Shown: positions 1,641 to 27,425, counted from the first letter of the stretch. The stretch is 32,000 bases of DNA from Candidatus Nanosynbacter lyticus (GCF_000803625.1 NZ_CP007496.1:673139-705138); one strand, 5' to 3'. Translations and numbers: made by a program. The notes: generated from the sequence alone by a model not told the origin.

Positions 1641-1652
1641 TCATATAAACTA

Positions 1653-1690: not shown

Positions 1691-1720
1691 TATATTTACT
1701 GTCCAGCTAAGATAGGTAAA

Positions 1721-1745
1721 GAAAAAACACCTCCGCAGAAGTGTC
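1721..1745 (-). terminator. Short hairpin terminator downstream of tRNA-Asn
   Basis: On the minus strand: ACACTTC-TGCG-GAGGTGT (7-bp stem with one G-U pair, 1727-1744) followed by TTTTT (1722-1726). It lies directly 3' of the tRNA. Confidence 0.55.
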
Positions 1746-1751
1746 TTTTCT

Positions 1752-1826
1752 TGGCTCCGGCAGCTGGGCTCGAACCAGCGACCTATTGGTTAACAGCCAA
1801 CCGCTCTACCACTGAGCTATGCCGGA
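1752..1826 (-). tRNA. tRNA-Asn (anticodon GTT), CCA encoded
   Basis: The reverse complement reads TCCGGCATAGCTCAGTGGTAGAGCGGTTGGCTGTTAACCAATAGGTCGCTGGTTCGAGCCCAGCTGCCGGAGCCA. The acceptor stem TCCGGCA/TGCCGGA pairs, the anticodon loop is CTGTTAA, a GGTTCGAGCCC T-arm is present, and the 3' end is CCA. Confidence 0.93.
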
Positions 1827-1837
1827 ATACGAATCTT

Positions 1838-1866
1838 ATTATAGCGAGTTTTTAAACAGTTGTAAA
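1838..1866 (-). promoter_or_regulatory. Sigma70-type promoter for tRNA-Asn
   Basis: Minus strand: TTTACA (1861-1866), 17-bp spacer, TATAAT (1838-1843). The -10 ends 11 nt upstream of the mature tRNA 5' end. Confidence 0.6.
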
Positions 1867-1867
1867 G

Positions 1868-2200
1868 TTACTGACGAACAATTTCTAGTGCTTTTTTCAA
1901 AATTTCTACTTCTTTGCGTGATTTTTCATCATCTTTTTCTTCTCTTTTCTTGATCTCTCTAGTCAAATTATTCCACCAAACCTCTTTTTCAGCACTACAC
2001 ACAGCCAAAGACCTTACTTCGCCGTCGCGCTTATCCAGTAATCCTGCCGACACCAAATTATCAACATGTTTAGCTACAGTTGAAACCGATTTATATCCGA
2101 GTGCACGCATAATTTCCCGCAGTGTCGGACTGTAGCCGTTACCCTTAATAAAACCATCGATGAAATCCAGCATCATTTTCTGTTTTTTCGTCAACTTCAT
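1868..2200 (-). CDS. Small transcriptional regulator with a LexA-type N-terminal winged-helix DNA-binding domain and a charged coiled-coil tail; no S24 peptidase domain
   Basis: From the ATG at 2200 the protein starts MKLTKKQKMMLDFIDGFIKGNGYSPTLREIMRALGYKSVSTVAKHVDNLVSAGLLDKRDG.., which matches the LexA N-terminal pattern (..LT.RQ..vl.fI......GypPs.REI......S.s.v..hl..L...G.l.r). The C-terminal 40 aa are K/E-rich. The ORF track starts at a GTG at 2215; the ATG at 2200 is preferred because of the homology-like N-terminus and the TATACT-N6-ATG context. Confidence 0.7.
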   Translation of the reverse strand: MKLTKKQKMMLDFIDGFIKGNGYSPTLREIMRALGYKSVSTVAKHVDNLVSAGLLDKRDGEVRSLAVCSAEKEVWWNNLTREIKKREEKDDEKSRKEVEILKKALEIVRQ

Positions 2201-2206
2201 ATCTAA

Positions 2207-2228
2207 AGTATACACTATGCGCTATACT
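2207..2228. promoter_or_regulatory. Back-to-back TATACT -10 elements for divergent, apparently leaderless genes (also a 7-bp inverted repeat)
   Basis: AAGTATA (2206-2212) and TATACTT (2223-2229) form an inverted repeat with a 10-bp spacer. Read outward, each is TATACT exactly 6 nt from an ATG (2200 on the minus strand, 2235 on the plus strand). Neither gene has a Shine-Dalgarno sequence. Confidence 0.5.
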
Positions 2229-2234
2229 TACAGT

Positions 2235-3650
2235 ATGTCAAAAAACCTCATCAATGATATTCAATTTTGGCTCCTCGTAACGGTTATTTTCGGTGGTGCA
2301 TTTGCCTTGCATCCCAGCCTCAACTTAGCAATCCTTGATTTTCCTTCATTACGATTAGGTCTATATCAGTTAGTTGCAGTCAGCCTAGTACTATCCACGA
2401 TACCGATATTATTTAAGAAACGGCAAACCTTCCTTAAAAATCGTTACCTAATTGGCGGGTTTTTAGCAATTTTTCTAGCCATGGCTATAGGCGTCTTTTT
2501 TGCCGAAGCGCATCTTCGCACTGCGCTTTATTCATTGTCGCTCTTATTTTTATTAGTTGTAGGCTTGTCGGCTGGCGTGGTTTATACAGAATTGTCAAAG
2601 ACCAAAAAACACAGATTAGTCAAGTTTGGTTTATGGAGCGGTCTGGTTTTCGGAATCTTAGCAATTATCCAGCTCGTCGTTGCCACCTTCGAACCAACTG
2701 GCTTTGGCACGCTTTGTTCTGGCTGTAAAGCTGACGTTTTTGGTTTTCCGCGCATCAATCTATTCGCCGCTGAACCACAGTTTTTAGCCAATGCCCTGCT
2801 ACCCGCCTTTTTCTTAGCCCTCTTCCAACCAAAATCCCGCCTCACTCAACTCAGTTTATTTTTCACTGCCACAGCCATAGCCTTAACCTTTTCTCGCGGC
2901 GGATTTTTAGCAATTTTTCTAGCCATTATAATTTTCATCGCTATCGCCTCAATCAAGCGCCTCAATATTTCTTTCCTCTATAAAAACCTTCCTCTGATTA
3001 TTATCGGCACGTTTTTCGGATTTACTTTACTATTTCTGTCTGCCAATATTCGCTATAGCAGTTCGCCGTTTATAGCACATAACACGCTTGTTAGTATGAT
3101 TGACCAATTATCCCTCGGCCGAATTAAAATACCGCAAAAAACTGTCATTAAAACCCAGCCAGCACCATCTTCTCAACAGAAGACCTCAGATATAAAATCC
3201 ACCCCGACAAAACAGGACTTCCAGCCTACCGGATTCGTTGAAGCTTCAGCTAACGATCGTCTTAGCGCCAGCGACCTAGCCCTTAAGTCCTGGCTGAGTT
3301 CGCCTCGTACGTTATTCTTTGGCGTCGGCCTCGGTAATCTCGGCAGCTTCATCCAAAAGCACCTCCACATTAGCGTACCGACCGACCAAACCGTCTACAT
3401 TTTCTACGTTTTACTACTTAGCGGACTCGGCATCATTGGCTTATTGCCGCTCATCCTACCATCTCTTACAATTATCTTCTTTGCTATAAAAAATATCTGC
3501 CACCCTAAAGCGCAGCTTATCTTTTCATTAACCACTGCACTACTTATCCATTTCTGGTTTTTTGGCAGTTTTATTAACACAATTCATTGTTTTGCTATAA
3601 TTGGTATATTTTTGTATAATTACCCCAGAGATTATGCGGAAAAAGTCTGA
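2235..3650 (+). CDS. Polytopic membrane protein of the O-antigen ligase / O-antigen polymerase (Wzy_C-like) family
   Basis: About 10-12 hydrophobic helices. It has a Wzy_C-like core (..ALTFSRGGFLAIFLAIIIFIAI..) and a long hydrophilic loop (aa ~320-390 of the track ORF). The ORF track start at 2160 would overlap the divergent gene, so ATG 2235 (or 2217) is preferred. Confidence 0.65.
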   Translation: MSKNLINDIQFWLLVTVIFGGAFALHPSLNLAILDFPSLRLGLYQLVAVSLVLSTIPILFKKRQTFLKNRYLIGGFLAIFLAMAIGVFFAEAHLRTALYSLSLLFLLVVGLSAGVVYTELSKTKKHRLVKFGLWSGLVFGILAIIQLVVATFEPTGFGTLCSGCKADVFGFPRINLFAAEPQFLANALLPAFFLALFQPKSRLTQLSLFFTATAIALTFSRGGFLAIFLAIIIFIAIASIKRLNISFLYKNLPLIIIGTFFGFTLLFLSANIRYSSSPFIAHNTLVSMIDQLSLGRIKIPQKTVIKTQPAPSSQQKTSDIKSTPTKQDFQPTGFVEASANDRLSASDLALKSWLSSPRTLFFGVGLGNLGSFIQKHLHISVPTDQTVYIFYVLLLSGLGIIGLLPLILPSLTIIFFAIKNICHPKAQLIFSLTTALLIHFWFFGSFINTIHCFAIIGIFLYNYPRDYAEKV

Positions 3651-7749: not shown

Positions 7750-8778
<1,029 letters not shown>

Positions 8779-8780
8779 TT

Positions 8781-9347
8781 ATGTTTGATCCAAACGACTA
8801 CAACGAACTAACCGTCACCGAATCACCCATCCCTGGTCTATTCGTCGTCAAATTACCAGTCCATGGCGATAATCGCGGCTGGTTCAAAGAAAACTACCAA
8901 AAAGAAAAAATGGAAGCACTGGGACTACCGTCGTTTACCATCGTGCAAAACAACATCAGCTTCAATGATAAAGCTGGCGCCACTCGGGGCTTACACGCCG
9001 AGCCATGGAACAAATTCATCTCCACCGCCAACGGTCGGGTGTTCGGCTCGTGGTGCGATTTGCGTAAAGGCGACAGCTTTGGCCGAGTTTTCACGCACGA
9101 AATTAACCCCGGCACAGCAATTTTCGTACCAAAAGGCGTTGCCAATGGCTATCAAGCGCTTGACGACAACATTGCCTACACTTACCTGGTTGACGCGCAC
9201 TGGTCGCCAGCCGCCAAATACACCTTTGTCAATCTGTTTGATCCGGCACTCGGTATTGACTGGCCGATCAGCCAGGATCAAGCGATTATTTCTGAAAAGG
9301 ACGCCGCTCACCCGCTACTTACAAACGTAATCCCAATGGAGGTTTAA
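8781..9347 (+). CDS. rmlC: dTDP-4-dehydrorhamnose 3,5-epimerase
   Basis: 188 aa from ATG 8781 (AAGGA SD). Cupin-type RmlC motifs: GDNRGWFKE, RGLHAEPW and a KGVANGYQ segment. The track ORF start at 8700 lies inside rmlB. Confidence 0.92.
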   Translation: MFDPNDYNELTVTESPIPGLFVVKLPVHGDNRGWFKENYQKEKMEALGLPSFTIVQNNISFNDKAGATRGLHAEPWNKFISTANGRVFGSWCDLRKGDSFGRVFTHEINPGTAIFVPKGVANGYQALDDNIAYTYLVDAHWSPAAKYTFVNLFDPALGIDWPISQDQAIISEKDAAHPLLTNVIPMEV

Positions 9348-9348
9348 T

Positions 9349-10194
9349 ATGAATTCAAATAACATTTTTATCGTCGGAGCAAATGGTCAACTAGGGCGGG
9401 CACTTCGTCAACAATATCCAGAAGCACAGTTCGCCGACATAGACGAGATGGATATTACTGACCGCCAATCAGTTGAGTCATTTGATTGGTCAGGAATATC
9501 AATCGTTTTAAACGCAGCAGCCTTTACTAATGTTGACGGCGCAGAAACACCAGAAGGTCGCGTTGCAGCCTGGAAGGTTAACGCCTCAGCGGTTGCCAAC
9601 CTAACCCGAGTTTGTCGCTCTCACAATATGACTTTAGTACATATTTCCAGCGATTACGTATTTGACGGGACAAAAGAACCACATTATGAAAGCGAAGACT
9701 TTAGTCCGCTGAGTGTTTATGGTGCATCAAAGGCTGCTGGAGATTTGTTGGTTGAACAACTCGATAATTTTTACCTACTGCGTACTACTTGGGTGATTGG
9801 TGAAGGTAAAAATTTCGTCCGCACCATGCTGGGATTGGCGGAGAAAAATATTTCACCAACTGTTGTTCATGACCAAATTGGCCGGCTAACCTTTACTAAT
9901 GAATTGGTGAGAATTATTGACCACCTGCTGTCAACTAAGGCACCGTTTGGCACATACAACGCCACCAACGATGGCCCGTTGGAAAGCTGGGCTGACATTA
10001 CCAGGCGAATATTTAAGCTGGCTGGGCGCAATGACCTGACTGTTACCAACACGACGACGGCTGAATATTTTGCTGGCAAAGATGGGATTGCACCACGTCC
10101 ATTAGGCAGCAACATGAGCCTTGACAAGTTACATTCAACTGGATTTACTAGCTGTGATTGGACGCATGACTTAAAAGATTATATACTGAGCTAA
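9349..10194 (+). CDS. rmlD: dTDP-4-dehydrorhamnose reductase
   Basis: [13 protein letters not shown](P)-binding motif, [17 protein letters not shown] (YxxxK). 281 aa. GGAGG SD. Confidence 0.92.
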
Positions 10195-10204
10195 AAGGAG
10201 TTTT

Positions 10205-11050
10205 ATGAAAGGAATAATTTTAGCAGGTGGATCAGGGACGCGCCTTTGGCCAATTACTCAGGCGATCAGTAAACAACTAATGCCGATTTATGATAAGCCG
10301 ATGATTTATTATCCGCTTACTACACTCATGCAGGCAGGAATTCGCGATATTTTGATAATTACCACACCAGACGACCAGGCTGGCTTTCAACGACTCCTTG
10401 GCGACGGTTCACAGTGGGGTATCACCCTCGAATATGCCGTTCAACCTAGCCCAGACGGCCTAGCACAAGCCTTCATCATCGGTGAAGATTTCATTGGCGA
10501 CGACAAGGTGGCGTTAGTCCTGGGAGATAACATCTTCCACGGTGAGCGGCTGGATGAATCTCTACAGGGGTGTACTAATCCTGATGGTGGTATAGTTTTT
10601 GCCTACAAGGTTTCTGACCCAGAACGATACGGTGTTGTCGAGTTTGATGAACAAAATCAAGCTATTTCCATTGAAGAAAAACCAGCCAAGCCAAAATCAA
10701 ACTTTGCCGTTGTTGGTTTGTATTTTTATGACAATGACGTGGTCGAAATCGCCAAGAACGTCAAACCATCCGACCGCGGTGAGCTAGAGATTACCTCCAT
10801 CAATGCTAAATACTTGCGCCGCGGTAAACTGCGGGTCCAAGCCTTAGACAACGGTGACGTTTGGCTGGATACTGGAACGATTGACAGCCTGACCGATGCC
10901 TCTGACTTTGTTCGGGTTATCCAAAAACGAACCGGCCGCATCATTGGTAGTCCAGAAAAAATTGCCTTTAAAAATGGCTGGATTAATCGGGATCAGCTTA
11001 GCAAGCTCTCTGAGCCGCTGAAAAAATCTGGTTACGGTAAGTATTTATAA
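10205..11050 (+). CDS. rmlA: Glucose-1-phosphate thymidylyltransferase
   Basis: [18 protein letters not shown].., [17 protein letters not shown], and an EKP..PKSN.AV.GLYFYD segment. AAGGAG SD. Confidence 0.95.
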
Positions 11051-11069: not shown

Positions 11070-11774
11070 ATGAAGAGGGTTTGTGTTATTATTCCAGCTT
11101 ATAACGAGGCAGCTGTCATTGAAAGTGTAATTAAAAAAGCCAAGAAGGTTTTTTCAAAAGCCAAGAAAGATTATTTGATAGATATCGTACTTGTTAATGA
11201 CGGGTCGAAGGATAATACTCTTGATCAAGCGCAAAAAGGCGGCGCAATTGTCATTGATCATATCTTGAATTCCGGAGCTGGCGGTGCAACACTAACTGGA
11301 CTTGCCTACGCGCAGCAACGCGGCTATGATATTGCCGCCACCATGGATGCTGATGGTCAGCACGATCCAGAAGATGTCTTGGCGGGCATTCGACAGAGCG
11401 ACAAATCTAACACTGATTTACTTATCGGTAGCCGGCTCATCAATAGCGAAGGCATGTCTAGGACTAAGGTTTTGGGAAATAAAGGCTTAAGTTTCATCAC
11501 TTATGCTCTGTTTGGCATCAATGTCACTGATTCACAGTCCGGTCTGCGAGTTTACTCGCGAAAGGCAATTGATAACCTCGACTGGAAATCGACTGGCTAC
11601 GAATTTTGCTCAGAGATGATTTGGCGCGCCAAACAAGCAGGCATGGTTATTTCCGAATACCCAATTAAAGCAATTTACACCGACTATTCCCGTGCCAAAG
11701 GTCAAAACAACTGGAATGCCATCAATATTGTCAAACGACTATTTAAGCAACGCTTAACGGAGTTATTCGAATGA
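11070..11774 (+). CDS. Soluble GT2 glycosyltransferase, polyprenyl-phosphate sugar synthase-like (GacI/DPM1-like)
   Basis: 234 aa. VIIPAYNEAAVI.., VNDGSKDNT, and MDADGQHDP (DxD-type). No C-terminal TM helices. Translationally coupled to the downstream small membrane protein. Confidence 0.75.
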   Translation: MKRVCVIIPAYNEAAVIESVIKKAKKVFSKAKKDYLIDIVLVNDGSKDNTLDQAQKGGAIVIDHILNSGAGGATLTGLAYAQQRGYDIAATMDADGQHDPEDVLAGIRQSDKSNTDLLIGSRLINSEGMSRTKVLGNKGLSFITYALFGINVTDSQSGLRVYSRKAIDNLDWKSTGYEFCSEMIWRAKQAGMVISEYPIKAIYTDYSRAKGQNNWNAINIVKRLFKQRLTELFE

Positions 11775-12124
11775 GATACCTTGTCCTTGTATTACTTAAT
11801 GTGCCGATTATTTTAGCAGCATTGATCAATATCATCACTCAGTACAAACTGCGCAAAGTCAGCGTAGCACGCTTTCGTCATCAATTAATCATCTGGGTAG
11901 TTATCATGGTTGTCCTGATTGGGTCATTTCCTCTGTATAATATTTCGATTGGCCATCCGCCGCTGGATTCATCAGAGTTAAGCTTATTTGATATTTTGCA
12001 AACTACAGCGATTATTTTGCTATTCTACATCGCCAACAACCAGCGCCAGCGTATCGACCAAAACGAGCGAAGACTACGCGATTTACATCAAGAATTATCA
12101 ATTAGGCTGTCGGATGAAAAATAG
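11771..12124 (+). CDS. Small 3-4 TM membrane protein, DUF2304/GacJ-like partner of the upstream GT2
   Basis: 117 aa. Hydrophobic N-terminal two-thirds and a charged C-terminal tail (QRQRIDQNERRLRDLHQELS). Its ATG overlaps the upstream stop (ATGA at 11771-11774). GGAG SD. The family assignment rests on size, topology and synteny only. Confidence 0.55.
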   Translation: MRYLVLVLLNVPIILAALINIITQYKLRKVSVARFRHQLIIWVVIMVVLIGSFPLYNISIGHPPLDSSELSLFDILQTTAIILLFYIANNQRQRIDQNERRLRDLHQELSIRLSDEK

Positions 12125-13940: not shown

Positions 13941-14798
13941 CTATCCACTAACCGGCAGTTGTTTAATGTAATCTTTCAGCATGTCCGTGTAGTCTCTTGG
14001 CGTGAAACCTGCTCGACGCAACTTCGACAAGTCCATATCACTATTGAGTGGTCGTGGCGCAAAGCCTGGTTTGCTGGCAGCGTATTCCTCGGTAGAAATT
14101 GGTTGCACACGATTGCGGTCATGTCCGGCGTATTCGAACACATCGGCAGCAATTTCATACCATGATTTAACTGGACCTTCGTTAGTGACATTGTATAGTC
14201 CGTATGCTACGTTATTATCTAAGAAATATTTAGTAGCTCGAGCAATCTCTGACGCAAACGTCAGCCGACCAAACTGATCATTAACTACTTTTGGATTGAT
14301 GCGCATATCCGCCAATTTTTTCATAGTTTTTGGCATATTGTGACCGTCACCAACGACCCAAGATACCCGCATAATGTAGTGTTTTGGCACTAAGCTAACC
14401 ACCAAATCACCCGCCGCCTTACTTTCTCCATAAACCAAAAGAGGCGCAACCACTTCATCATCTTGATGGTTTTTCTCCCGACCGTCCCAGACATAATCTG
14501 ATGAATAGTGGACAAGGGTCTTATTCTGCTCAATAGCAATCTTAGCTAGGTTGCGTGGACCATAAGCATTCGCCAACCACGTCTTAGCACGCAGGTCGTC
14601 TGTCTCAGAACCATCAGCGTTAACCAAGGCTGCCGCATTTATGATAACGTCGTATTTCGACCAATCAAACGCGTCTATTTGCGCTTCATCGGATATATCT
14701 AATTCTTCTCGTGATAACGCCTTGGCGTCTGGAAACATAACACACAGCGCCCTACCCAGTTGTCCACTTGCTCCCACAATTACATACTTCTTACTCAT
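13941..14798 (-). CDS. Second RmlD-family NAD(P)-dependent 4-ketoreductase (dTDP-4-dehydrorhamnose reductase paralog)
   Basis: GASGQLGRAL, SSDYVWDG and YGESKAAGD motifs. It aligns without major gaps to the rmlD at 9349-10194, at roughly 40-50% identity by eye. Confidence 0.85.
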   Translation of the reverse strand: MSKKYVIVGASGQLGRALCVMFPDAKALSREELDISDEAQIDAFDWSKYDVIINAAALVNADGSETDDLRAKTWLANAYGPRNLAKIAIEQNKTLVHYSSDYVWDGREKNHQDDEVVAPLLVYGESKAAGDLVVSLVPKHYIMRVSWVVGDGHNMPKTMKKLADMRINPKVVNDQFGRLTFASEIARATKYFLDNNVAYGLYNVTNEGPVKSWYEIAADVFEYAGHDRNRVQPISTEEYAASKPGFAPRPLNSDMDLSKLRRAGFTPRDYTDMLKDYIKQLPVSG

Positions 14799-16051
14799 AA
14801 CTCCCCTTTTCTCTTGTCAATTATTATAGCATCTTTTAGTGACCGCTTGTAGATAACCAACAGAAGTGCTAGTTGCAAAAAGCTGATCAGCATAAAAACT
14901 AACACACTACCCAACATCGCCAACTGCTCAATCAGGCATATAGACATCACTACCGCCAAAACATCTGTGAGTAGCAATGTATAAAACTGCCCCTTAAACC
15001 GACGCATAATTATCAGCAAATTAACATAAATCGACACAAAAGCGTTCGCCGCCGCGCCAATCACCATAATAGTCAAATCAAGGCGGAAATTATTGATATT
15101 GATGCCAAAAATAACGTTAAGCATCCAAACACCAATCAAATAGCTCAGGACAACTGAAAGTACGCCCATCCCAAAAGTTATTTGATTAATCTTACCAACA
15201 ATTCGCGCGAACTCCTTCAATTTTCCTTTTGCTAATAACTCAGACAAATTCACGACATTCGGCTGAATGATAAACGATATGAAGAGTCCAAGGAGCGTAA
15301 TTGGCATCGCCATAATGCCAAAATAGCCAATTTGGTCAGGATGGGACTTGTCCAAAAAATACCGCGGGATATTGAGTGAAAACATCGTCAAAAACATCAC
15401 AACGAACACCACTGAAGTGTGTTTCATGATGACAACAGCCTGGGTGATATACTCTTTGCATAATTTTTTACTTATACTGATAGTTTCAACGCGCCGCACC
15501 CAAAGTATATCGTAGAGGAATATAATCAGCATATTAATCAATAATATTGCCAACGTGCCGTATATGACATTTTTAGTGACAATGTCAACCGCCATGAACG
15601 CCGCAAAACCAAGCATCGCTTTCATAGTTAATGATATGCCAGCGATATATAGCTTATGATGAATTTGCAGGACACCGTATAGCGAGTCGGCGATTGATTC
15701 TAGTATCTTAAAGGTTACCAAAATCATGATCAGACCTGTCTTTGTAGTGTTATATCCGTTAAGGAAGCAAAATGCTACCGCGGAAATCGCCACAATGAGT
15801 GATGCGACGAAGCGTACAGCAACATAGCCGCCACTCGAAAATTCCCGCTTAATATCAGATACTTGATAGGTCCGACCACCCCATAAAGAAACCGCCCAAA
15901 ACACCACCGAAAGCGACAGCGCAAACGAAAATAACCCAGAATCCTCGATGCCATTCAACCGCGTAATAACAATCAATAATACTGGTGAAATTGCACTCTG
16001 TAACAATGAACCTAACGAGTTCCAGATGTAGTCCTTTTTCTGCGATTGCAT
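14795..16051 (-). CDS. Wzx-type (MOP superfamily) lipid-linked glycan flippase
   Basis: 418 aa with ~12 predicted TM helices. Polysaccharide-biosynthesis-protein-like N-terminus (IWNSLGSLLQSAISPVLLIVITRLNGIEDSGLFSFALS). Overlaps the downstream RmlD paralog by 4 nt. Confidence 0.7.
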   Translation of the reverse strand: MQSQKKDYIWNSLGSLLQSAISPVLLIVITRLNGIEDSGLFSFALSLSVVFWAVSLWGGRTYQVSDIKREFSSGGYVAVRFVASLIVAISAVAFCFLNGYNTTKTGLIMILVTFKILESIADSLYGVLQIHHKLYIAGISLTMKAMLGFAAFMAVDIVTKNVIYGTLAILLINMLIIFLYDILWVRRVETISISKKLCKEYITQAVVIMKHTSVVFVVMFLTMFSLNIPRYFLDKSHPDQIGYFGIMAMPITLLGLFISFIIQPNVVNLSELLAKGKLKEFARIVGKINQITFGMGVLSVVLSYLIGVWMLNVIFGININNFRLDLTIMVIGAAANAFVSIYVNLLIIMRRFKGQFYTLLLTDVLAVVMSICLIEQLAMLGSVLVFMLISFLQLALLLVIYKRSLKDAIIIDKRKGEL

Positions 16052-16057
16052 ATCATT

Positions 16058-16066
16058 AGTATAGCA
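16058..16066 (-). promoter_or_regulatory. Extended -10 (TGcTATACT, minus strand) 6 nt upstream of the wzx-like ATG
   Basis: The minus strand reads TGCTATACT-AATGAT-ATG (ATG at 16051). No SD. Confidence 0.5.
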
Positions 16067-16092
16067 AGTTTGCTCAATAAACTACTCTACTT

Positions 16093-16098
16093 TATAAT
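16093..16098 (+). promoter_or_regulatory. TATAAT -10 element 11 nt upstream of the ATG at 16110
   Basis: TATAAT at 16093-16098. No SD before ATG 16110. Confidence 0.4.
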
Positions 16099-16109
16099 TT
16101 GCTTAGTAT

Positions 16110-17498
16110 ATGAAAAAATATTGGTCTTTATTCTTATCTTTTATTAAAAAGCCTGAAAATGTCTTTATATCTTTGTCATTGTTTTTTGGAGTGTTGTCGG
16201 CAGCCACCGTACCTCTGCTATCAATCAATGACGAAGGTGTACATTATATGCGGGCCTATGGGCTATCCCAAGGAAAAATTGAATCAGGAGTTGCCTGTAC
16301 TTTACCTAAAGAAGTGGTATTAAAAGCAAAAGAAGCAGATGTAAATAATTTCGTAACTAGCTATAAGAAAACTATAAATCGTAGCGATACAGAGACAGGG
16401 AAATGCAGTAGCGCAACTGGCTATCCTCCAATTATGCATCTACCGCAGACAATTGGTATCATTTTGGCAAATCTCGTACACGGTTCACTTGGGATAACTA
16501 TTATATTCGGAAGATTAGCCAACCTAATATTTTATTCATTTGCTCTTTATTTCATCATAAAATGGGTACGCGTTGGCAAATGGGCATTCGTAGCAACCGG
16601 CCTATTTCCGCTAATGATACATTTGGCAGCGTCTCTTTCCGGAGATAGTGTGACAAATATCGCAATTTTTACCGCTATTGCTGCTACATTAAATTTCTTT
16701 AGTCAAAAAAGCCCGTTAACTCGACAACAGCAGTTGCTTATTATTGCTGTAGCCTGCTTGTTAATTCTCACAAAGTCGGTAACAATACTCTTATTATCAC
16801 CAGTCATTTTCTTGCCAAAGCGCCTCTTTGTTCCAGATAAAAAATCAAAAATATCTTTTATTCCGCAAAAATGGTTGGTTCTCTCAGCAGCAGCAATATT
16901 AGCAGGCCTTTGTTTAATAGCGTGGCTTCATGTATACACACAACCCCTACTCACCACTGGCGCACCGCATAATCCGCTTCATAGCAATCCGCTCAAATTT
17001 ATCCAGATATTATTTAATACTTACCTAAACCCAAACCTGCCCGTATCCGACGATATCCTGAGGGGCGTGATTGGCGCATTCTCTGCTTTTAAATACGGGC
17101 TGCCACTTTTTATATTACTACCATCATTTTCCCTCCTCTTCCTCTCTCTCCTTCATTACAACAAGAAAGACCAGGAGTTATTAGGAGAGCAGACTGGTAA
17201 ATTGGCAGTGTATAATTTGGCGACAATTGGGTTGTTTGTTTGTGCAGTGTCGTATGCTATGTATACAGCGTGGGCCTTATTGCCATTTAGGTTTGGCGAG
17301 GGAGCGTATTATGCGGATGGTGTTCAGGGTAGATATTTTACAGCAACAGCAGCTATGTTGGTGCCGGTAGGATTGTGGCTGCAGAAGTATATTAATGTGA
17401 GAACTAAGAATGACAAGGTATTTAACCTTATTATGTTCTTTGGGCTAGCTTTAGTGCTTGGGTTTTATGTTTTTGAGACGGTGTGGAAATTTAAGTAG
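16110..17498 (+). CDS. Polytopic GT-C-like membrane protein (DUF2142-like putative polyprenyl-phosphate-sugar-dependent glycosyltransferase), paralog 1
   Basis: 462 aa with ~11-13 TM helices. An acidic motif in the first predicted external loop (SINDEGVHYMRAY) resembles the GT-C/DUF2142 DE..H motif. It sits next to Wzx and polyprenyl-P-sugar synthase genes. Confidence 0.6.
   Translation: MKKYWSLFLSFIKKPENVFISLSLFFGVLSAATVPLLSINDEGVHYMRAYGLSQGKIESGVACTLPKEVVLKAKEADVNNFVTSYKKTINRSDTETGKCSSATGYPPIMHLPQTIGIILANLVHGSLGITIIFGRLANLIFYSFALYFIIKWVRVGKWAFVATGLFPLMIHLAASLSGDSVTNIAIFTAIAATLNFFSQKSPLTRQQQLLIIAVACLLILTKSVTILLLSPVIFLPKRLFVPDKKSKISFIPQKWLVLSAAAILAGLCLIAWLHVYTQPLLTTGAPHNPLHSNPLKFIQILFNTYLNPNLPVSDDILRGVIGAFSAFKYGLPLFILLPSFSLLFLSLLHYNKKDQELLGEQTGKLAVYNLATIGLFVCAVSYAMYTAWALLPFRFGEGAYYADGVQGRYFTATAAMLVPVGLWLQKYINVRTKNDKVFNLIMFFGLALVLGFYVFETVWKFK
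17127..17487 (+). repeat. 361-bp perfect direct repeat, copy 1 (3' coding module of GT-C paralog 1)
   Basis: Base-by-base comparison shows 17127-17487 is identical to 18555-18915 (offset 1428 bp, in frame). It begins with a 28-nt all-pyrimidine run (17127-17154). Confidence 0.95.
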
Positions 17499-17518
17499 CT
17501 ATCCTAATCATGACAATG

Positions 17519-17527
17519 TGCTAGAAT
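17519..17527 (+). promoter_or_regulatory. Extended -10 (TGcTAGAAT) 10 nt upstream of the ATG at 17538
   Basis: TGCTAGAAT at 17519-17527. No SD before ATG 17538. Confidence 0.4.
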
Positions 17528-17537
17528 AAAAACAGTT

Positions 17538-18926
17538 ATGAAAAAATATTGGTCTTTATTCTTATATTTTATTAAAAAGCCTGAAAATGTCTTTATATCT
17601 TTGTCATTGTTCTTTGGAGTATTGTCGGCAATACTAGTCCCTCAGTTATCTGTAAGCGATGAAAATATGCATTACCTGCGAGCTTACGGAATATCTCAAG
17701 GCCGCGTAGAATCTGGATCACATTGTACGCTTCCAAAAGATGTTGCTAAAAGAGCTGGGTCGGTTTACGAAGGTAATTTTTCTGCAGACTACTCTAAGCC
17801 TATAGACCGCAATACATTAGATGTTGATAAATGTAGTAGTGCATCTGGCTATCCGCCAATTATGCACCTGCCGCAAGCAATCGGCATTAATATAGCAAAT
17901 CTATTTGGAGGATCTACTGGGTTAACTATTCTGTTTGGACGAATTGCTAATATAATTTTTTATTCAGTAGCCGTCTTTTTCGTCATAAAATGGGTACGCG
18001 TTGGCAAATGGGCATTTACGGCAATTGGGCTTATCCCTCTTATGGTTCATATGGCCGCTTCACTATCAAGCGACTGCATGACAAATGTGGCAGTCTTTAC
18101 AATTACTGCTTTTACCTTGAACCTATTCACCCAAAAGGACAAGTTATCACATAAACAAACAGTCGCTCTTATCTGTATAGGAGTATTCCTTACTCTAACC
18201 AAATCTGTAAATGCCTTACTACTATTTCCTCTTCTGTTTTTACCAAAGCGTCTATTCTCACCCAACAAAAACGAACGTCTGCCATTTAATATTCAGAAGT
18301 GGGCTATATTAACAGTAACTGGTGTTGCCGCGATTATTAGCATACTAATTTGGCAGAAAATATTTGGACAGCCGTTACTTACGTTAGGCGCAGCGCACAA
18401 TCCGCTCCACAGTAATCCATTAAAGTTTATTGCCATACTGTTTAACACCTACATTAGCCCAACTATCGGATACACGGATGTTGTATTACGTGGTAGCGTT
18501 GGTGATTTTTCATCCTTTAAATACCACCTGCCTTTGTTTGTGTTGATACCGCTCTTTTCCCTCCTCTTCCTCTCTCTCCTTCATTACAACAAGAAAGACC
18601 AGGAGTTATTAGGAGAGCAGACTGGTAAATTGGCAGTGTATAATTTGGCGACAATTGGGTTGTTTGTTTGTGCAGTGTCGTATGCTATGTATACAGCGTG
18701 GGCCTTATTGCCATTTAGGTTTGGCGAGGGAGCGTATTATGCGGATGGTGTTCAGGGTAGATATTTTACAGCAACAGCAGCTATGTTGGTGCCGGTAGGA
18801 TTGTGGCTGCAGAAGTATATTAATGTGAGAACTAAGAATGACAAGGTATTTAACCTTATTATGTTCTTTGGGCTAGCTTTAGTGCTTGGGTTTTATGTTT
18901 TTGAGACGGTGTGGACTTATAAATAA
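17538..18926 (+). CDS. Polytopic GT-C-like membrane protein (DUF2142-like), paralog 2
   Basis: 462 aa, collinear with paralog 1 with no indels. External-loop motif SVSDENMHYLRAY. The C-terminal ~120 aa are identical to paralog 1. Confidence 0.6.
   Translation: MKKYWSLFLYFIKKPENVFISLSLFFGVLSAILVPQLSVSDENMHYLRAYGISQGRVESGSHCTLPKDVAKRAGSVYEGNFSADYSKPIDRNTLDVDKCSSASGYPPIMHLPQAIGINIANLFGGSTGLTILFGRIANIIFYSVAVFFVIKWVRVGKWAFTAIGLIPLMVHMAASLSSDCMTNVAVFTITAFTLNLFTQKDKLSHKQTVALICIGVFLTLTKSVNALLLFPLLFLPKRLFSPNKNERLPFNIQKWAILTVTGVAAIISILIWQKIFGQPLLTLGAAHNPLHSNPLKFIAILFNTYISPTIGYTDVVLRGSVGDFSSFKYHLPLFVLIPLFSLLFLSLLHYNKKDQELLGEQTGKLAVYNLATIGLFVCAVSYAMYTAWALLPFRFGEGAYYADGVQGRYFTATAAMLVPVGLWLQKYINVRTKNDKVFNLIMFFGLALVLGFYVFETVWTYK
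18555..18915 (+). repeat. 361-bp perfect direct repeat, copy 2 (3' coding module of GT-C paralog 2)
   Basis: Identical to 17127-17487. Further identity islands: 16110-16202 vs 17538-17630 (90/93) and 16555-16588 vs 17983-18016 (34/34). Confidence 0.95.
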
Positions 18927-18965
18927 ATCTTTTTTCATATTACTCTTGTTGCTTATGCTTATTTA

Positions 18966-18974
18966 TGTTAAAAT
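18966..18974 (+). promoter_or_regulatory. Extended -10 (TGtTAAAAT) 9 nt upstream of the ATG at 18984
   Basis: TGTTAAAAT at 18966-18974. No SD before ATG 18984. Confidence 0.4.
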
Positions 18975-18983
18975 ATCATAAAT

Positions 18984-19550
18984 ATGAGAATCGCAAAGAA
19001 AAAACTTTCAAAAAAACATATATTATTTACTTCTGCGGTATTTGTCGTCATAGCCTGCTTATCTGTTTTTGCACTTGATAAGCTTGGTGTTATATCAATT
19101 TTATCAAAAGACACCATATTAAATATTTCCAAAGAACCAACTCAACAAGAGAAAAAATCTGAAGAAAAAACTAATCAGGATACCAAGGACTCTTTTTTGG
19201 ATAATAGTAAAGACGACAAGAAAAAGTCTGTTGAAAAAAGTAAACCAGCACCCGTTCCAGTAAATAATTCTTCGATAGAATTATCTGCAAATAAAGATGG
19301 TAGCAATGTTACGATTATTGCAAAACTAAAAGAACAGGGATATTCACAAGGTAAATGTCTACTAATAATAACCGTAAATGGAAAGAAATATTCTCAAGAG
19401 GCAGAAATTATATATCAACCAGAATACTCAACCTGCGCTGGATTTTCAGTTCCTGTCTCATCTGTTGGCAATGGCAGCTGGGACATCTCTCTTTCCGTAA
19501 CACCCATCAATGGCAAGTCTATAAATAAAAAGATGATAAAGGATATATGA
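18984..19550 (+). CDS. Hypothetical membrane-anchored protein (N-terminal TM anchor, K/E/D-rich linker, C-terminal beta-rich two-cysteine domain)
   Basis: 188 aa. Basic N-terminus + TM (ILFTSAVFVVIACLSVFAL), low-complexity charged linker (aa ~50-85), and a ~95-aa C-terminal domain containing two Cys. Its stop overlaps the downstream start (ATGATG/TGA at 19547-19550). No recognisable family. Confidence 0.6.
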   Translation: MRIAKKKLSKKHILFTSAVFVVIACLSVFALDKLGVISILSKDTILNISKEPTQQEKKSEEKTNQDTKDSFLDNSKDDKKKSVEKSKPAPVPVNNSSIELSANKDGSNVTIIAKLKEQGYSQGKCLLIITVNGKKYSQEAEIIYQPEYSTCAGFSVPVSSVGNGSWDISLSVTPINGKSINKKMIKDI

Positions 19551-21820
19551 TGGCAAAATTTAAAATTTTTATCTCAACAATAGCCACTGCTATTGGTGTA
19601 TTAGGCCTAGTTTTTTTTGCCAATCAGTCAGGCGCCATCACTTCTAGCGATTGGAAAGCGGGCAATATAGTCGACGATTTCATATTCACAAACTCCGACG
19701 ACATGACAGTTGCTGACATTCAAGCATTTCTTAATAGCATAAATCCAAGTTGTGATACATACGGAACAGGACGTGCTACAGAAAGAGGAAGGGGCGATAT
19801 TACGCGTGCTCAATATGCAGCATCCAGAGGTTGGGCAGGACCACCATATATTTGCTTAAAAGATTATTACGAAGTCCCCAAATATTCACCTGGCGATTAT
19901 ATACCAGCTAACAACTTTAGTGGCTCAATTCCACAAGGTGCTGTCAGTGCTGCACAGATAATTTATGATGCAGCAAAACGCAATAATCTAAGTCCAAAAG
20001 TAATTTTAGTTAAAATCGCTACTGAATCGGCCGGCCCACTCACCACAGATAATTGGCCGTTGCAGAGTCAATATACTTACGCCATGGGCTCGCATTGCCC
20101 AGATAGCGGCCCTGGAGGTAGCGCTAACTGCGACCGCAACTATGCTGGTTTTTCCATGCAGGTAGAATCTGGTGCTCAGCTAATGCGTCAGTATCTTGAT
20201 AACATGGAAAAACCTTGGTGGAAATATAAAAAACCATTTGCAACTAACTCAATCCTATGGAATGTAGTACAGAGTGGCTGTGGCGCTGGAGATGTTTATA
20301 TATCCAGCAAAGCAACAGCTGCACTATATACTTACACCCCGTATCAACCAAATCAGGCCGCTCTTAATAATATGTACGGACTAGGCGACCATTGCAGCGC
20401 TTATGGCAATCGTAACTTTTGGCGCGTTTGGAACGACTGGTTTGGATCGACCCAGTACAGCCGTCCAATCATTAGTTTCAAATCGCATATTAGCTACTAT
20501 GGCTGGACTGGACTAGTACACAATCGCGGCATTACTGGCTTTACCGGCCAGAGCAAATCCATGCAAGCCTTCAGTATCGACGGTGAAGTTACCTATTCGT
20601 CGTATAGCGAGGAACGCGGTTGGCAGCCAACTGTCTATGGAGGTATGCAGTCTGGCACAACCGATCTCAACCGGCCTATTCAAGCAGTCAAAATCCAGCC
20701 AACTGGATCGCTTGCTGCAAAATATGACTTATACTACCGCACGCATGTCAGCTATGTCGGCTGGATGGGCTGGGCAAAAAATGGCGAGCCAGCCGGCATA
20801 ACGGGCGGACCTGGAAATAACATAGAGGCCTTAGAAATCCGGCTTGTTCACAAAGGATCTAGCGCCCCAGAAGATTCAGGCCAAGCTTTCAAGAATATTA
20901 GCACAAAGGGAGATTCTTCGCCGTTAGCAGTCTCAATTAGCTCGCACGTTGGCATGGTTGGCTGGCAACCAGCAGTCACTGATGAAATGATTAGCGGCAC
21001 TACCGGCCAAAGCCGTCGGATTGAAGCCGTCAAAGCCTCCCTTATTAATAAAACTGGCATTTCTGGCGACCTTCGCTATTCGTCTCACGTCTCATGGGTT
21101 GGCTGGCAAGACTGGAAAAATGCAAACGAAATATCAGGCACTACTGGTCAGTTCAAATCAGTCGAAGCAATTCGTTTTATGCTCACTAGCGACCTTGCAA
21201 AATCATACGATATCTGGTATCGTGCTTATTCGCAGTATGTCGGCTGGATGGGTTGGGCAAAAAATGGCGAGCCAGCCGGATCAACTGGCGCAACCAGACA
21301 GCTTGAGGCCATCCAGATTCGTATAGTGCCAAAAAATTCAATCGCCCTACCTAGCGGCGCATTCTACAACCCAGCCAATACGCCTGTCCCAGATTTGTAT
21401 GATCTCAGCTATTCAACCCACGTCAGCTATGTTGGCTGGATACCAAATGTATCCCAGGGTGTCATGTCTGGTACAACGGGGCGATCGTTCGCCGTTGAAG
21501 CACTACGCATTGCCAAAGCTATATCACAACGCGACGGATCGACCATCACCATCCGCTGCTCGTCAAAATCGGCTAACGACCCTTGGTCGGCAGATATACC
21601 TGTGACTGAACAACAAATCTGCGGCACTACCGGCCAAACAAAAGCGCTCAATGGCATAAAACTATCCCTCAGTGAAACCGACGCCAAGAAATATGATATT
21701 TACTACCAAACTCACCTATCATGGATTGGTTGGCAAGAGTGGAAAAAGAACGGTGAGGTTGCCGGCGATAAACCAGGATCACACATTGAAGCTGTTAGGA
21801 TAAAGCTTGTTGAAAAATAG
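19547..21820 (+). CDS. Secreted protein: conserved Cys-containing N-terminal domain (possible lysozyme-like peptidoglycan hydrolase) + nine ChW (clostridial hydrophobic W) repeats
   Basis: 757 aa. Signal/anchor sequence (IFISTIATAIGVLGLVFFANQSGA). The N-terminal domain is aa ~31-305, with a segment AAQIIYDAAKRNNLSPKVILVKIATESA reminiscent of glucosaminidase/lysozyme-like domains. Aa ~308-757 contain 9 modules matching the ChW pattern Y..HV...GW......G...G.TG....iEAi.i.L (e.g. LRYSSHVSWVGWQDWKNANEISGTTGQFKSVEAIRFML). Confidence 0.8.
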   Translation: MMAKFKIFISTIATAIGVLGLVFFANQSGAITSSDWKAGNIVDDFIFTNSDDMTVADIQAFLNSINPSCDTYGTGRATERGRGDITRAQYAASRGWAGPPYICLKDYYEVPKYSPGDYIPANNFSGSIPQGAVSAAQIIYDAAKRNNLSPKVILVKIATESAGPLTTDNWPLQSQYTYAMGSHCPDSGPGGSANCDRNYAGFSMQVESGAQLMRQYLDNMEKPWWKYKKPFATNSILWNVVQSGCGAGDVYISSKATAALYTYTPYQPNQAALNNMYGLGDHCSAYGNRNFWRVWNDWFGSTQYSRPIISFKSHISYYGWTGLVHNRGITGFTGQSKSMQAFSIDGEVTYSSYSEERGWQPTVYGGMQSGTTDLNRPIQAVKIQPTGSLAAKYDLYYRTHVSYVGWMGWAKNGEPAGITGGPGNNIEALEIRLVHKGSSAPEDSGQAFKNISTKGDSSPLAVSISSHVGMVGWQPAVTDEMISGTTGQSRRIEAVKASLINKTGISGDLRYSSHVSWVGWQDWKNANEISGTTGQFKSVEAIRFMLTSDLAKSYDIWYRAYSQYVGWMGWAKNGEPAGSTGATRQLEAIQIRIVPKNSIALPSGAFYNPANTPVPDLYDLSYSTHVSYVGWIPNVSQGVMSGTTGRSFAVEALRIAKAISQRDGSTITIRCSSKSANDPWSADIPVTEQQICGTTGQTKALNGIKLSLSETDAKKYDIYYQTHLSWIGWQEWKKNGEVAGDKPGSHIEAVRIKLVEK
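20468..21817 (+). repeat. Coding array of nine ChW modules organised as three super-repeats of three
   Basis: Modules 3 and 6 share a near-identical 44-nt core (20753-20796 vs 21236-21279, 1 mismatch; YVGWMGWAKNGEPAG). Modules 3, 6 and 9 each close one triplet. Confidence 0.75.
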
Positions 21821-25440: not shown

Positions 25441-26604
25441 CTATTTCCACGTATGGTCTAATTTAGTAACACCACCCCAACGCCCACTTTCATAATCCCG
25501 TTGAACTGAAAAATGAGGACCTTCTTCTATAAAAGCTATAGTGTCTATATCTCTTTTTCCAGTTAAGCCAGCTTTTATAAAATAATCCCCCTCATTAAGG
25601 TTCAACTTAACTGTATACTCTGCTTTGTTTTTGTGCTTAATTTTATATTGATCCTGATAGGTATTAGGGCCAAATACATATTCTCCATTTTCTCTAAATA
25701 TAGCAACTCCGATATTCTTTACGTTAGGCTGCTCCCAAGATAATTTAATTGTAATCTGTTCATTATACTTAAAGGAATTATTCTCTTTACCTTGACTATC
25801 GTATATGCGTACATCAAAAGGTGCGGATGATCGATTAAAATTATGTGTTTTTGCGTGTTCTAATTGATTACTCATGCTATATGCAGCGGCAACTATATGA
25901 GGTTTTCCTTGTATCTTTACTTTGCCGTTCTCTATTAGTACAGCTTTATTGCAAAAACGCTCTACAGCTCCCATATCGTGAGTCACTAATATGACAGTCT
26001 TATTTTCACGCTTTAATTTATCAAAATAAGCATAGCATTTTTTCTGAAATGCCTCATCGCCAACCGCCAGAACCTCGTCAAGCATTAAAATGTCACCCTT
26101 AGCTTTTATCGCAATAGAGAATGCTAAGCGAACTTGCATACCACTTGAATAATTCTTCAGCCTCTCTTCCATAAAATCATGCATTTCAGCAAAATCAACA
26201 ATATCATCGTACATTTCATCAACTTCTTTTCGACTGAATCCTAGAAGTGCACCATTCAAATATACATTATCCCTGCCGGACAATTCAGGATTAAATCCAA
26301 CACCTAATTCGATAAAAGGAACTAATTTACCTTTTGTGCGTATATGACCCTTATTAGGTGTATATATACCTGCTATTAATTTCAATAAGGTACTTTTACC
26401 AGACCCATTTTTACCAACTATTCCAAAAAAATCACCCTCTTCAATACTGAAAGAAACGTTTTTTAGCGGAGTAAAGTCTCTATAGCCTTTTTTTCTCAAC
26501 AAAAAGCCTACAACTTTCTGCTTAAACATATTCACCGACTCAATTGGAATTCTGAAAGTTTTAGTTACTCCGACGATTTCAACTATATTATTTTTTGCCA
26601 TCAT
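25441..26604 (-). CDS. wzt: Polysaccharide ABC exporter ATP-binding protein (Wzt/TagH/RgpD-like) with C-terminal beta-rich extension (Wzt_C-like)
   Basis: Walker A GKNGSGKST, signature YSSGMQVRL, Walker B ILMLDEVLAVGD, H-loop VTHD. About 140 extra C-terminal residues. GGAGG SD. The start overlaps the wzm stop by 1 nt. Confidence 0.88.
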   Translation of the reverse strand: MMAKNNIVEIVGVTKTFRIPIESVNMFKQKVVGFLLRKKGYRDFTPLKNVSFSIEEGDFFGIVGKNGSGKSTLLKLIAGIYTPNKGHIRTKGKLVPFIELGVGFNPELSGRDNVYLNGALLGFSRKEVDEMYDDIVDFAEMHDFMEERLKNYSSGMQVRLAFSIAIKAKGDILMLDEVLAVGDEAFQKKCYAYFDKLKRENKTVILVTHDMGAVERFCNKAVLIENGKVKIQGKPHIVAAAYSMSNQLEHAKTHNFNRSSAPFDVRIYDSQGKENNSFKYNEQITIKLSWEQPNVKNIGVAIFRENGEYVFGPNTYQDQYKIKHKNKAEYTVKLNLNEGDYFIKAGLTGKRDIDTIAFIEEGPHFSVQRDYESGRWGGVTKLDHTWK

Positions 26605-27425
26605 TATATATCCTCCGCAAAATACCGTGATTTTTTAGAAAAATAATAAACTCCAAATATTACCGTAATTAGTATTATTAGCCACGGTATTATGATACGC
26701 CAATCATGAATTAAATCAGTTGCTCTAATAATCGAACCATCTTGATTTATCAATACATACCTAGCATCTTGAATAATTTGCGTTACTGGATTAATAAAAA
26801 GTAGCTCTGCTGCCACACGACTGCGCTCTAGTGCCATTTGTAAAGGATAAATAATCGGAGCTGCGTAAAAAGCCGCTTGCAGAAAGATTTCCCAAATATA
26901 GCTAGTGTCACGATATTTCACGTTAAATACAGATAACAACAATGCTATACCTAAAGAAAATATATATAACTCGATAATAAGAGGAATAATCCATAGTGCC
27001 GAGAAAGAAAGGCTTACGCCATTTAACAGAATAAATATTAGAACTACGCCTAGATTAATAAATAAGTTGATTAAAGAAGATACTGTTCCTGATATTACAA
27101 TAATATACTTTGGAAAATTTAATTTTCTAATCAAATCTCCCCTATTAACGATAGACCCTAGTCCATTACTTGTCGCTTCTGTAAAGAATGACCACAGAAC
27201 AATACCTAACAGCATTGTTACGGGAAAATGAGGTATTCCCCTGTCTAATCTTAGTATGTGTACAAAAACAACATACAGGATAGCAAACAGAAACAGCGGT
27301 TTTAGTACACTCCATACATAGCCTAAAACCGAGCCCTGATATCTTAATTTAAAATCAGTTACAATAAGTTCTCTTAATAATATAAGGTTTTGACGACCTA
27401 AAAAGTTTAGAGGTTTCCACATCAC
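26604..27425 (-). CDS. wzm: Polysaccharide ABC exporter permease (ABC-2 type, Wzm/TagG/RgpC-like)
   Basis: 273 aa with 6 TM helices. Typical ABC-2 N-terminus (LIVTDFKLRYQGSVLGYVWSVLKPL). Starts at GTG 27425 (or ATG 27422). Confidence 0.85.
   Translation of the reverse strand: MMWKPLNFLGRQNLILLRELIVTDFKLRYQGSVLGYVWSVLKPLFLFAILYVVFVHILRLDRGIPHFPVTMLLGIVLWSFFTEATSNGLGSIVNRGDLIRKLNFPKYIIVISGTVSSLINLFINLGVVLIFILLNGVSLSFSALWIIPLIIELYIFSLGIALLLSVFNVKYRDTSYIWEIFLQAAFYAAPIIYPLQMALERSRVAAELLFINPVTQIIQDARYVLINQDGSIIRATDLIHDWRIIIPWLIILITVIFGVYYFSKKSRYFAEDI

Follow-up and report, generated by a model that had tools for sequence, protein, structure and literature searches.

Evidence for partial gene conversion between two tandem DUF2142 membrane-protein genes in a putative cell-wall polysaccharide locus of Candidatus Nanosynbacter lyticus

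How can two neighboring genes of exactly the same length be identical base for base over several hundred nucleotides and, immediately upstream, share only some 60% of their sequence? This question is raised by two genes of Candidatus Nanosynbacter lyticus TM7x, an oral episymbiont that has become accessible to genetics and is the model strain of the Saccharibacteria/Patescibacteria. We have analyzed a stretch of 32,000 nucleotides (nt) of its 705,178-bp genome, hereafter the window, which contains TM7x_03705 (copy 1, or A; 16110-17498) and TM7x_03710 (copy 2, or B; 17538-18926), both on the forward strand and both coding for a polytopic membrane protein of 462 amino acids (aa) of the DUF2142, GT-C-like type. 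An earlier inspection of the window on its own (hereafter the sequence-only reading) had attributed the pattern to gene conversion of the gene ends or to cassette-like exchange of the central part, and had seen in the repeats a substrate for deletions.

Our comparison with other Saccharibacteria indicates that A and B are probably old tandem paralogs of the DUF2142/GT-C type, located in a rhamnose-rich cell-wall polysaccharide locus and partly homogenized by gene conversion. A reduced genome of 705 kb thus retains two GT-C paralogs under purifying selection, and intragenomic recombination is active enough to homogenize 361 bp across many species. We found no prior description in the searchable literature of DUF2142 proteins in Saccharibacteria, of the TM7x locus tags or of Saccharibacteria glycan loci.

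Identical and divergent tracts in the tandem pair

Coordinates below refer to the window or, as gene nt, to the numbering from the ATG of either copy; features lie on the forward strand unless stated otherwise, and L-numbers denote the contigs and genomes compared. A and B are offset by 1428 nt and align without a single gap, as had been read from the sequence, with 1008 of 1389 nt identical in the ungapped alignment (71% overall). Homology begins at the ATG and stops 11 nt short of the stop codon, the flanks being unrelated. Within these limits identity is strongly patterned. A 5' block (gene nt 1-93; 16110-16202 in copy 1 and 17538-17630 in copy 2), which codes for the cytoplasmic tail and the first transmembrane helix (TM1), is identical at 90/93 positions, with identical runs at nt 1-28 and 30-74. 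An internal island at nt 446-479 (16555-16588 and 17983-18016) matches at 34/34 positions and encodes IKWVRVGKWAF, with the invariant residues K157 and W158. The 3' block (nt 1018-1378, aa 340-459; 17127-17487 and 18555-18915) is identical over 361/361 nt and comprises the last four TM helices, together with an invariant external loop (A402-G404-Q406-G407-R408-Y409). The center of the genes (nt 94-1017, ~924 nt) shows a nucleotide identity of 59.6% and a protein identity of 57% (aa 32-339). The three blocks of the sequence-only reading were thus reproduced to the base; its estimate by eye of 60-65% protein identity for the center was slightly too high, the strong divergence itself being confirmed. 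In a Sawyer-type permutation test (20,000 trials on the 683 sites polymorphic in a 40-sequence set), the blocks fell far beyond chance: 90 concordant sites follow one another in the 3' block, where permutation gave 18 at most, and, once this block is masked, the 5' run and the island retain P values of 1e-4 and 0.002, respectively. The 39-nt spacer between the copies (17499-17537) contains a -10-like TGCTAGAAT box (TAGAAT, 17522-17527) without a Shine-Dalgarno sequence; the spacer is conserved across clades.

Both copies exist. Both translations agree exactly with TM7x_03705 and TM7x_03710, each of which is recorded at NCBI for the cultured strain in two accession series, AJA06950/1 (AJA06950.1, AJA06951.1) and QCT41840/1 (QCT41840.1). 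The tandem pair also occurs in at least eight independent metagenome assemblies of near-identical strains and in ~25 Saccharibacteria genomes at the species level, among them the complete one of Nanosynbacter sp. TM7-008 (L034).

The evolution of the 3' block was followed in both copies from 20 distinct two-copy species-level Saccharibacteria genomes, L003, a near-clonal relative of TM7x, being also included. Within a genome the two 3' blocks show no difference at all in 13/20 cases and 1-10 differences in the others, whereas between genomes the median is 17/361 and the maximum 57. The block contains 90 polymorphic sites forming 27 haplotypes, which are paired by genome. Its synonymous divergence (dS) has a median of 0 between paralogs of the same genome (maximum 0.09) versus 0.18 between orthologues (maximum 0.93); in the center, dS between paralogs exceeds 1.3 or is saturated, with a nonsynonymous divergence (dN) of 0.35. 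In agreement with these values, the nearest neighbor of a 3' block is the paralog of the same genome in 35/40 comparisons, and that of a center is an orthologue in 40/40 and its own paralog in 0/40. The GC content at third codon positions, 0.467 in the 3' block versus 0.34 in the center of both genes (a small sample, the block having only 120 codons), would be compatible with GC-biased gene conversion. Orthologue dN/dS is ~0.1 for both copies, which points to two functional genes under purifying selection. Judging from these comparisons, the identity of the 3' block reflects gene conversion, as the sequence-only reading had suspected for the gene ends, and this conversion is ongoing; neither constraint on the protein nor faulty assembly accounts for the identity.

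The 5' block appears to be homogenized more sporadically and in short tracts. Its variants (CAC..TC at nt 19-25, T..A at nt 69/72) are found in either copy in different genomes, and its right boundary is fixed at nt 94. All three 5' sites that tell the copies apart are in the copy-2 state in copy 1 of L003, a strain with ~99% identity to TM7x; this indicates that conversion is ongoing at the level of strains. The identity of the 34-nt island is restricted to the copy-2 alleles of TM7x-like genomes and of L012-L015, which carry a copy-1-like tract there; this fits a short conversion tract from copy 1 to copy 2.

The extent of the homogenized tracts differs even between close relatives, as seen in the sister clade that includes TM7-008. 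The identical runs at the 5' and 3' ends span gene nt 1-95 and 1018-1377 in L021 and L034, 1-361 and 1018-1377 in L060, 18-68 and 831-1377 in L058, and 1-363 and 831-1377 in L059. The latter is the most homogenized pair seen, its copies differing solely in nt 364-830. This same segment (16473-16939 in copy 1, 17901-18367 in copy 2; aa ~122-277, predicted TM3-TM8) is the only one that is paralog-specific in all two-copy genomes examined. Tract junctions recur at gene nt 95, ~361, ~831-911 and 1018, in register with short islands of conserved sequence (nt 331-361 and 859-911). A mosaic structure is also evident among ~75 distinct 462-aa homologues, which consist of segment-wise combinations of two to four allele types, their first 31 and last 120 residues being at least 90% identical except in the two most divergent proteins. 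The idea of a cassette-like center thus gains support from the mosaic alleles, the recurrent boundaries and a core that is always paralog-specific.

Changes in copy number and exchange between strains

The expectation that the repeats could serve as a substrate for deletion agrees with the natural record. Three lineages have a single in-frame gene between the upstream flank of copy 1 and the downstream flank of copy 2. In L049 this gene is copy-1-like up to nt 1017 (333/348 informative sites) and then has a copy-2 tail (5/5), with the breakpoint inside the 3' block. In L035, 274/293 sites are copy-1-like and the following 57/59 copy-2-like, with the switch at ~nt 840-890. L052, L064 and L071 combine an A-type body (97% identical to A of TM7x) with the tail and downstream flank of B, the breakpoint lying again inside the 3' block; because all three carry the same downstream variant, they probably derive from one event and were not counted as three deletions. 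At least two independent deletions have thus occurred, with breakpoints in different places. An ancestral single-copy state was considered for L035 and rejected, its gene being a recombinant that is copy-1-like to ~nt 850 and copy-2-like thereafter. When JGI metagenomes were scanned by pattern for bodies of the A type, 11 contigs were retrieved: in nine, the A tail leads into the spacer, after which a second copy begins, and two have a single hybrid gene. The flanks of single-copy contigs are ~80% identical to those of TM7x, and they therefore represent separate lineages and not variants within the TM7x species. Expansion may occur as well: L057, a 3.1-kb metagenome scaffold (1-3152), carries two hybrid copies, each ending in a copy-1-type tail (RFK), and after them come the spacer and the beginning of a third copy; the scaffold represents either a real expansion to at least three copies or a mis-threaded repeat graph.

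More distant relatives place the pair in time. The syntenic lineage L055 (44% identity; 8001-10809, also L056) has two tandem DUF2142 genes of 458 aa, and both A and B are closer to the first of them; L053, a sister lineage, has one B-like gene. It follows that the architecture with two GT-C genes is old and that the duplication which gave A and B is younger. Oral lineages thus differ in how many of these enzymes they have and in the modules that compose them, and surface-glycan diversity in such an episymbiont becomes testable through the two genes named here, their mapped module boundaries and the hybrid genes of one-copy lineages.

DNA from other strains seems to contribute to the mosaic. 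TM7x and Candidatus Minimicrobia vallesae IHU2 (L037 = NZ_CP076459.1) share a 2.75-kb tract of 100% identity (window 14119-16869), while the rest of the polysaccharide locus is 73-95% identical between them. The right end of this tract falls within gene A, at ~gene nt 760-800, and the tract looks like a recent import by recombination between lineages; Saccharibacteria are naturally competent (PMC10633639). In the complete genome of IHU2, copy 2 (L037 7424-8934) is truncated after gene nt 1075: the last ~315 nt are lost and replaced by ~435 nt of unrelated DNA that covers the gene end, the spacer and the first ~26 nt of the following gene, which codes for a 188-aa protein.

Protein family and alternative explanations

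A and B are members of DUF2142 and most probably belong to the GT-C superfamily, in agreement with the GT-C-like character assigned to them at first sight. Both exceed the gathering score of Pfam DUF2142 (PF09913; 30.1 bits) by far, with 110.1 bits for A (E 1.5e-31) and 127.9 bits for B (E 5.4e-37), the matches covering profile positions 1-393/395. For B, a 52-sequence alignment yielded an AlphaFold2 model with a predicted local distance difference test score (pLDDT) of 90 and a predicted TM-score (pTM) of 0.91, which displays ~11 membrane-length helices; hydropathy and positive-inside loops would fit an N-in, C-out topology. The best-ranked Foldseek matches in the PDB, weak in E-value and TM-score (see below), are GT-C enzymes: ALG9, ALG12, ArnT, EmbB, DPY19, Pmt4, STT3/AglB, AftA and PimE. 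A sequence search of the PDB with the 52-sequence profile yielded only chance matches to nanobodies (E ~0.9). GT-C enzymes carry an acidic motif just after TM1, and the residues D41-E42, at least 90% conserved in the 52-sequence alignment (which reaches down to 39% identity), stand directly after TM1, in the first extracytoplasmic loop. The same loop holds the invariant residues C63 and C99. The most conserved motif of the family, A402-G404-Q406-G407-R408-Y409, forms the last external loop, within the homogenized 3' block.

The variable center had been said to contain the predicted external loops that would carry donor or acceptor specificity. In the first external loop the paralogs are 54% identical and 26 positions have no residue common to the copy-1 and copy-2 sets, but the core that always diverges consists mostly of transmembrane helices (TM3-TM8, with 29-72% paralog identity across elements). 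This natural series of domain swaps would place the specificity part of a DUF2142/WpsI-WpsJ-type enzyme in aa ~122-277 plus the first external loop, and an interchangeable part in aa 340-459. The term decorating enzyme used in the sequence-only reading may not apply, a polymerase/ligase pair of the WpsI/WpsJ type, discussed below, being equally possible by analogy.

Could the identical blocks have arisen without continuing exchange? Many short-read contigs end exactly at the repeat, at aa ~357-372, or begin just before copy 2, as though the tandem duplicate or its perfect repeats had been created by assembly; this is the expected behavior of a real 361-bp repeat. The two accession series of cultured TM7x, the complete TM7-008 genome and the concordant independent assemblies exclude such an artefact for all practical purposes, and the centers, which differ by 40%, belong neither to a collapsed nor to a duplicated single gene. 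Strong purifying selection on protein or nucleotides alone, without any exchange, would be in keeping with the position of the most conserved residues of the family in the C-terminal loop and of the invariant K157 and W158 in the island. The very same block, however, varies at 90 sites between genomes and its haplotypes are paired by genome; the contrast between a dS of 0 within genomes and of 0.18 (up to 0.93) between orthologues rules out protein-level constraint alone, and we regard selection without exchange as extremely improbable. A somewhat larger, though still very small, probability goes to a single recent duplication followed by the entry of a foreign allele into one center, the ends then being merely young and conversion having ceased. 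Imports between strains are indeed clear in the locus, the alleles are mosaic, and the conserved ends could have served as recombination anchors. Yet the boundary at nt 1018 is common to lineages whose 3' blocks lie up to 16% apart and are nevertheless identical within each genome, which therefore implies repeated homogenization after speciation. Moreover, block extents vary between close relatives, L003 displays a change at the level of strains, and the centers group by position in 40/40 comparisons, that is, as two orthologous groups.

A further alternative accepts the exchange and makes it a program: repeats and islands would be selected as handles for high-frequency variation, a population continually switching between one, two and three enzymes or shuffling their modules, and so varying its surface glycan. 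The recurrence of junctions at the same islands, the deletions in at least two independent events across three single-copy lineages and the possible array of three or more copies in L057 are in its favor, as is the surface-glycan locus itself, a classic target of diversifying selection. Nevertheless, we found no recombinase domain among the window open reading frames (ORFs) of at least 150 aa, which code for glycan synthesis or housekeeping functions, and only inverted repeats of chance level in the window (21-27 nt, 70-81% complementarity). Neither gene is a silent cassette: A and B are complete ORFs under purifying selection, each with its own start and -10-like box. Single-copy states occur in separate lineages and not within the TM7x species, and the junction islands correspond to conserved protein motifs, so that no special selection is needed to account for them. 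Programmed variation is accordingly improbable in our view. Slightly better placed, although still unlikely, is the idea that the identical ends and islands constitute a modular scaffold by which GT-C modules are shuffled between copies and, through transformation, between strains, with copy numbers of one, two or three alternating over ecological time. If so, the pair would act as a switch of surface-glycan type that might affect host range, competition among TM7 strains, phage susceptibility or recognition by the human immune system.

Several observations speak against old paralogs partly homogenized by conversion, or against parts of that interpretation. Most comparison genomes are short-read metagenome-assembled genomes, in which assembler collapse could inflate the count of exact zeros; dozens of lineage-specific variants are common to both copies, which collapse cannot explain, and some assemblies resolve 6-10 differences. 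In the JGI contig L010, the 3' end of the upstream copy departs from copy 2 at 16 sites of the block (L010 2-379 versus 419-1807), and the contig is either an exception to homogenization or a chimeric assembly of mixed strains. The 5' block has the paralog of its own genome as nearest neighbor in just 7/40 comparisons. The pair of the distant L055 is uniformly diverged, at ~32% aa identity, with no homogenized block, so that homogenization belongs to the A/B pair and not to the DUF2142 family. As for the fold, both the Foldseek E-values (best 2e-3) and the TM-scores (0.29-0.46) are weak, against probabilities of 0.69-1.0 for the first 19 matches. Finally, the 418-aa membrane protein encoded next to A, a putative flippase of the locus (see below), has no match in Pfam, a lenient scan included, or in NCBIfam, and its AlphaFold2 model, for which the alignment was shallow (identities of 89% or more), is unusable (pLDDT 35).

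Homogenization by conversion, as we propose it, would proceed as follows. RecA-type recombination would initiate in the long identical 3' block. Its usual resolution without crossover would homogenize again the 361 nt of the 3' end and, more sporadically, the first 93 nt and the short islands; a rare crossover would remove a single repeat unit, which measures 1428 bp in TM7x and 1423 bp in the sister clade, and leave a single in-frame hybrid. Mismatches, together with selection for two distinct enzymes, would halt extension into the center of 60% identity, where islands of 31-53 nt, conserved through the invariant motifs that they encode, may serve as occasional footholds. Imports from other strains would add allelic mosaicism. 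Of these processes, the repeated exchange in limited tracts, the crossover products and the import of DNA between strains are borne out by genome comparison.

In this respect, as far as sequences tell, the pair follows the classical course of tandem paralogs under partial concerted evolution, with hybrids produced by unequal crossover; in the searchable literature we found no earlier account of it in Saccharibacteria or for DUF2142 genes. In Salmonella tufA/tufB and Helicobacter pylori babA/babB, paralogs of one genome are more alike than orthologues in defined tracts, and in the bab genes a divergent middle that determines function lies between conserved 5' and 3' ends, with chimeras produced by recombination. 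TM7x differs from them in that the genes are adjacent direct repeats coding for GT-C enzymes, the tracts keep their boundaries across many species and the bearer is an ultra-reduced episymbiont. In Streptococcus mutans, the adjacent and similar glycan-synthesis genes gtfB/gtfC recombine into a single in-frame hybrid with deletion of the intervening DNA. These Gtf enzymes are secreted GH70 glucansucrases and their hybrids have been seen as laboratory or clinical variants within the species, whereas here membrane GT-C enzymes are concerned and the hybrids are fixed in separate lineages.

The surrounding locus and its likeness to known systems

The gene content of the window identifies it as a rhamnose-type cell-wall polysaccharide locus, organized, to judge by its domains, like the Lactococcus WpsI/WpsJ system. 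The rmlB, C, D and A domains occur at 7765-11050, the transporter components Wzt (ABC_tran + Wzt_C) and Wzm (ABC2_membrane) at 25441-26604 and 26604-27425, respectively, and the locus also includes several GT2 and GT4 genes, GT8 genes and a ChW-repeat wall protein. At 11070-12124, a candidate initiating pair of the GacI/GacJ or WpsA/WpsB type is formed by a GT2 protein resembling polyprenyl-phosphate sugar synthases (11070-11774; NCBIfam PpgS NF058614, E 2.8e-46, 157.8 bits, below the curated cut-off of 370 bits) and an overlapping membrane ORF of 117 aa (11771-12124), with a weak DUF2304 match (E 0.002, 18.7 bits, below the 25.5-bit cut-off). The 418-aa polytopic membrane protein mentioned above (TM7x_03700; 14795-16051, reverse strand) is putatively a Wzx-type flippase of the lipid-linked glycan: its gene adjoins A, in divergent orientation, in every syntenic locus, and its relatives are named "polysaccharide / lipopolysaccharide biosynthesis protein" in the source records. 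The 188-aa protein encoded after B (18984-19550) has one N-terminal TM helix and may be a WpsH-like partner. Its gene always follows the GT-C gene or genes, in the distant L055 as well; the protein showed no family match, even in a lenient Pfam scan.

In Lactococcus, the DUF2142 proteins are WpsI, the polymerase of the side chain, and WpsJ, which transfers it onto the rhamnan, with WpsA/B (homologues of GacI/J), the Wzx flippase WpsG and WpsH as partners; strains without WpsI/H, in which WpsJ is the sole GT-C, bear oligosaccharide and not polymeric side chains (PMC9574508, PMC12599335). The TM7x locus resembles that of Lactococcus lactis/cremoris in having two DUF2142 genes for proteins of ~11 TM helices in the side-chain part of a rhamnan locus. 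It also shares with the dual-chain rhamnose-rich cell-wall polysaccharide (Rha-CWPS) system of Lactococcus the rml genes and a backbone pathway with an ABC transporter; the initiating pair and the Wzx-type flippase are candidates here. One- and two-copy Saccharibacteria genomes parallel the Lactococcus strains with one and two GT-C enzymes. By analogy, A and B might act as a WpsI-like polymerase and a WpsJ-like rhamnan ligase. Unlike WpsI/WpsJ, they belong to a patescibacterial genome of 0.7 Mb, are of equal length, are 71% identical and are partly homogenized, and partial identity by conversion is not described for WpsI/WpsJ in PMC9574508 and PMC12599335. The 188-aa neighbor, with its one TM helix, departs from the description of WpsH.

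The locus also recalls three-component systems such as GacI/GacJ/GacK/GacL of Streptococcus pyogenes, CsdA/CsdB/CflA of Lactococcus and PpgS/Rv3632/Rv3779 of mycobacteria, in which a GT2 polyprenyl-phosphate sugar synthase with a DUF2304-type partner is combined with a flippase and an extracytoplasmic GT-C; the window contains the PpgS-like GT2 and the weakly DUF2304-like ORF. These systems have one GT-C per modification, whereas the additional GT2 and GT8 genes in TM7x suggest an oligosaccharide and not a single sugar. From this context we infer that both enzymes would act at the outer face of the membrane on a glycan linked to undecaprenyl phosphate; the GT2/DUF2304-like pair would make this glycan together with the GT2 and GT8 enzymes, and the 418-aa protein would flip it. 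Common to A and B is a C-terminal module of four helices with the ADGVQGRY loop, which might serve a common step, for instance the handling of a lipid-linked donor or of a shared partner, whereas the divergent first external loop and TM3-TM8 would determine the acceptor or linkage proper to each enzyme. A cell with one copy lost would then have a simpler side chain.

Expression signals offer some further detail. A, B and the 188-aa gene are preceded by -10-like boxes (TATAAT, TGCTAGAAT and TGTTAAAAT, respectively) 15-17 nt before the ATG (box regions 16093-16109, 17522-17537 and 18969-18983), without Shine-Dalgarno sequences; many other genes of the window have GGAG-type sites instead. This arrangement suggests separate, nearly leaderless transcripts, with the box in the A-B spacer as a putative promoter. 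A scan of 15900-19700 for sigma-70 and terminator consensus sequences gave results not above shuffled expectation and found no terminators.

Other genes of the window deserve a brief mention. A second RmlD-type reductase is encoded among the side-chain genes (13941-14798, reverse strand), in addition to the first (9349-10194, forward strand), and might produce a different 6-deoxyhexose. The ChW-repeat wall protein (757 aa; 19547-21820) is the sole noticeably variable patch (89-95%) between TM7x and the otherwise near-identical contig L001, where two ORFs (526 and 213 aa) take its place. Window 12-1640, at the edge of the locus, codes for a protein of 542 aa with leucine-rich repeats and a GH16 glycoside hydrolase domain.

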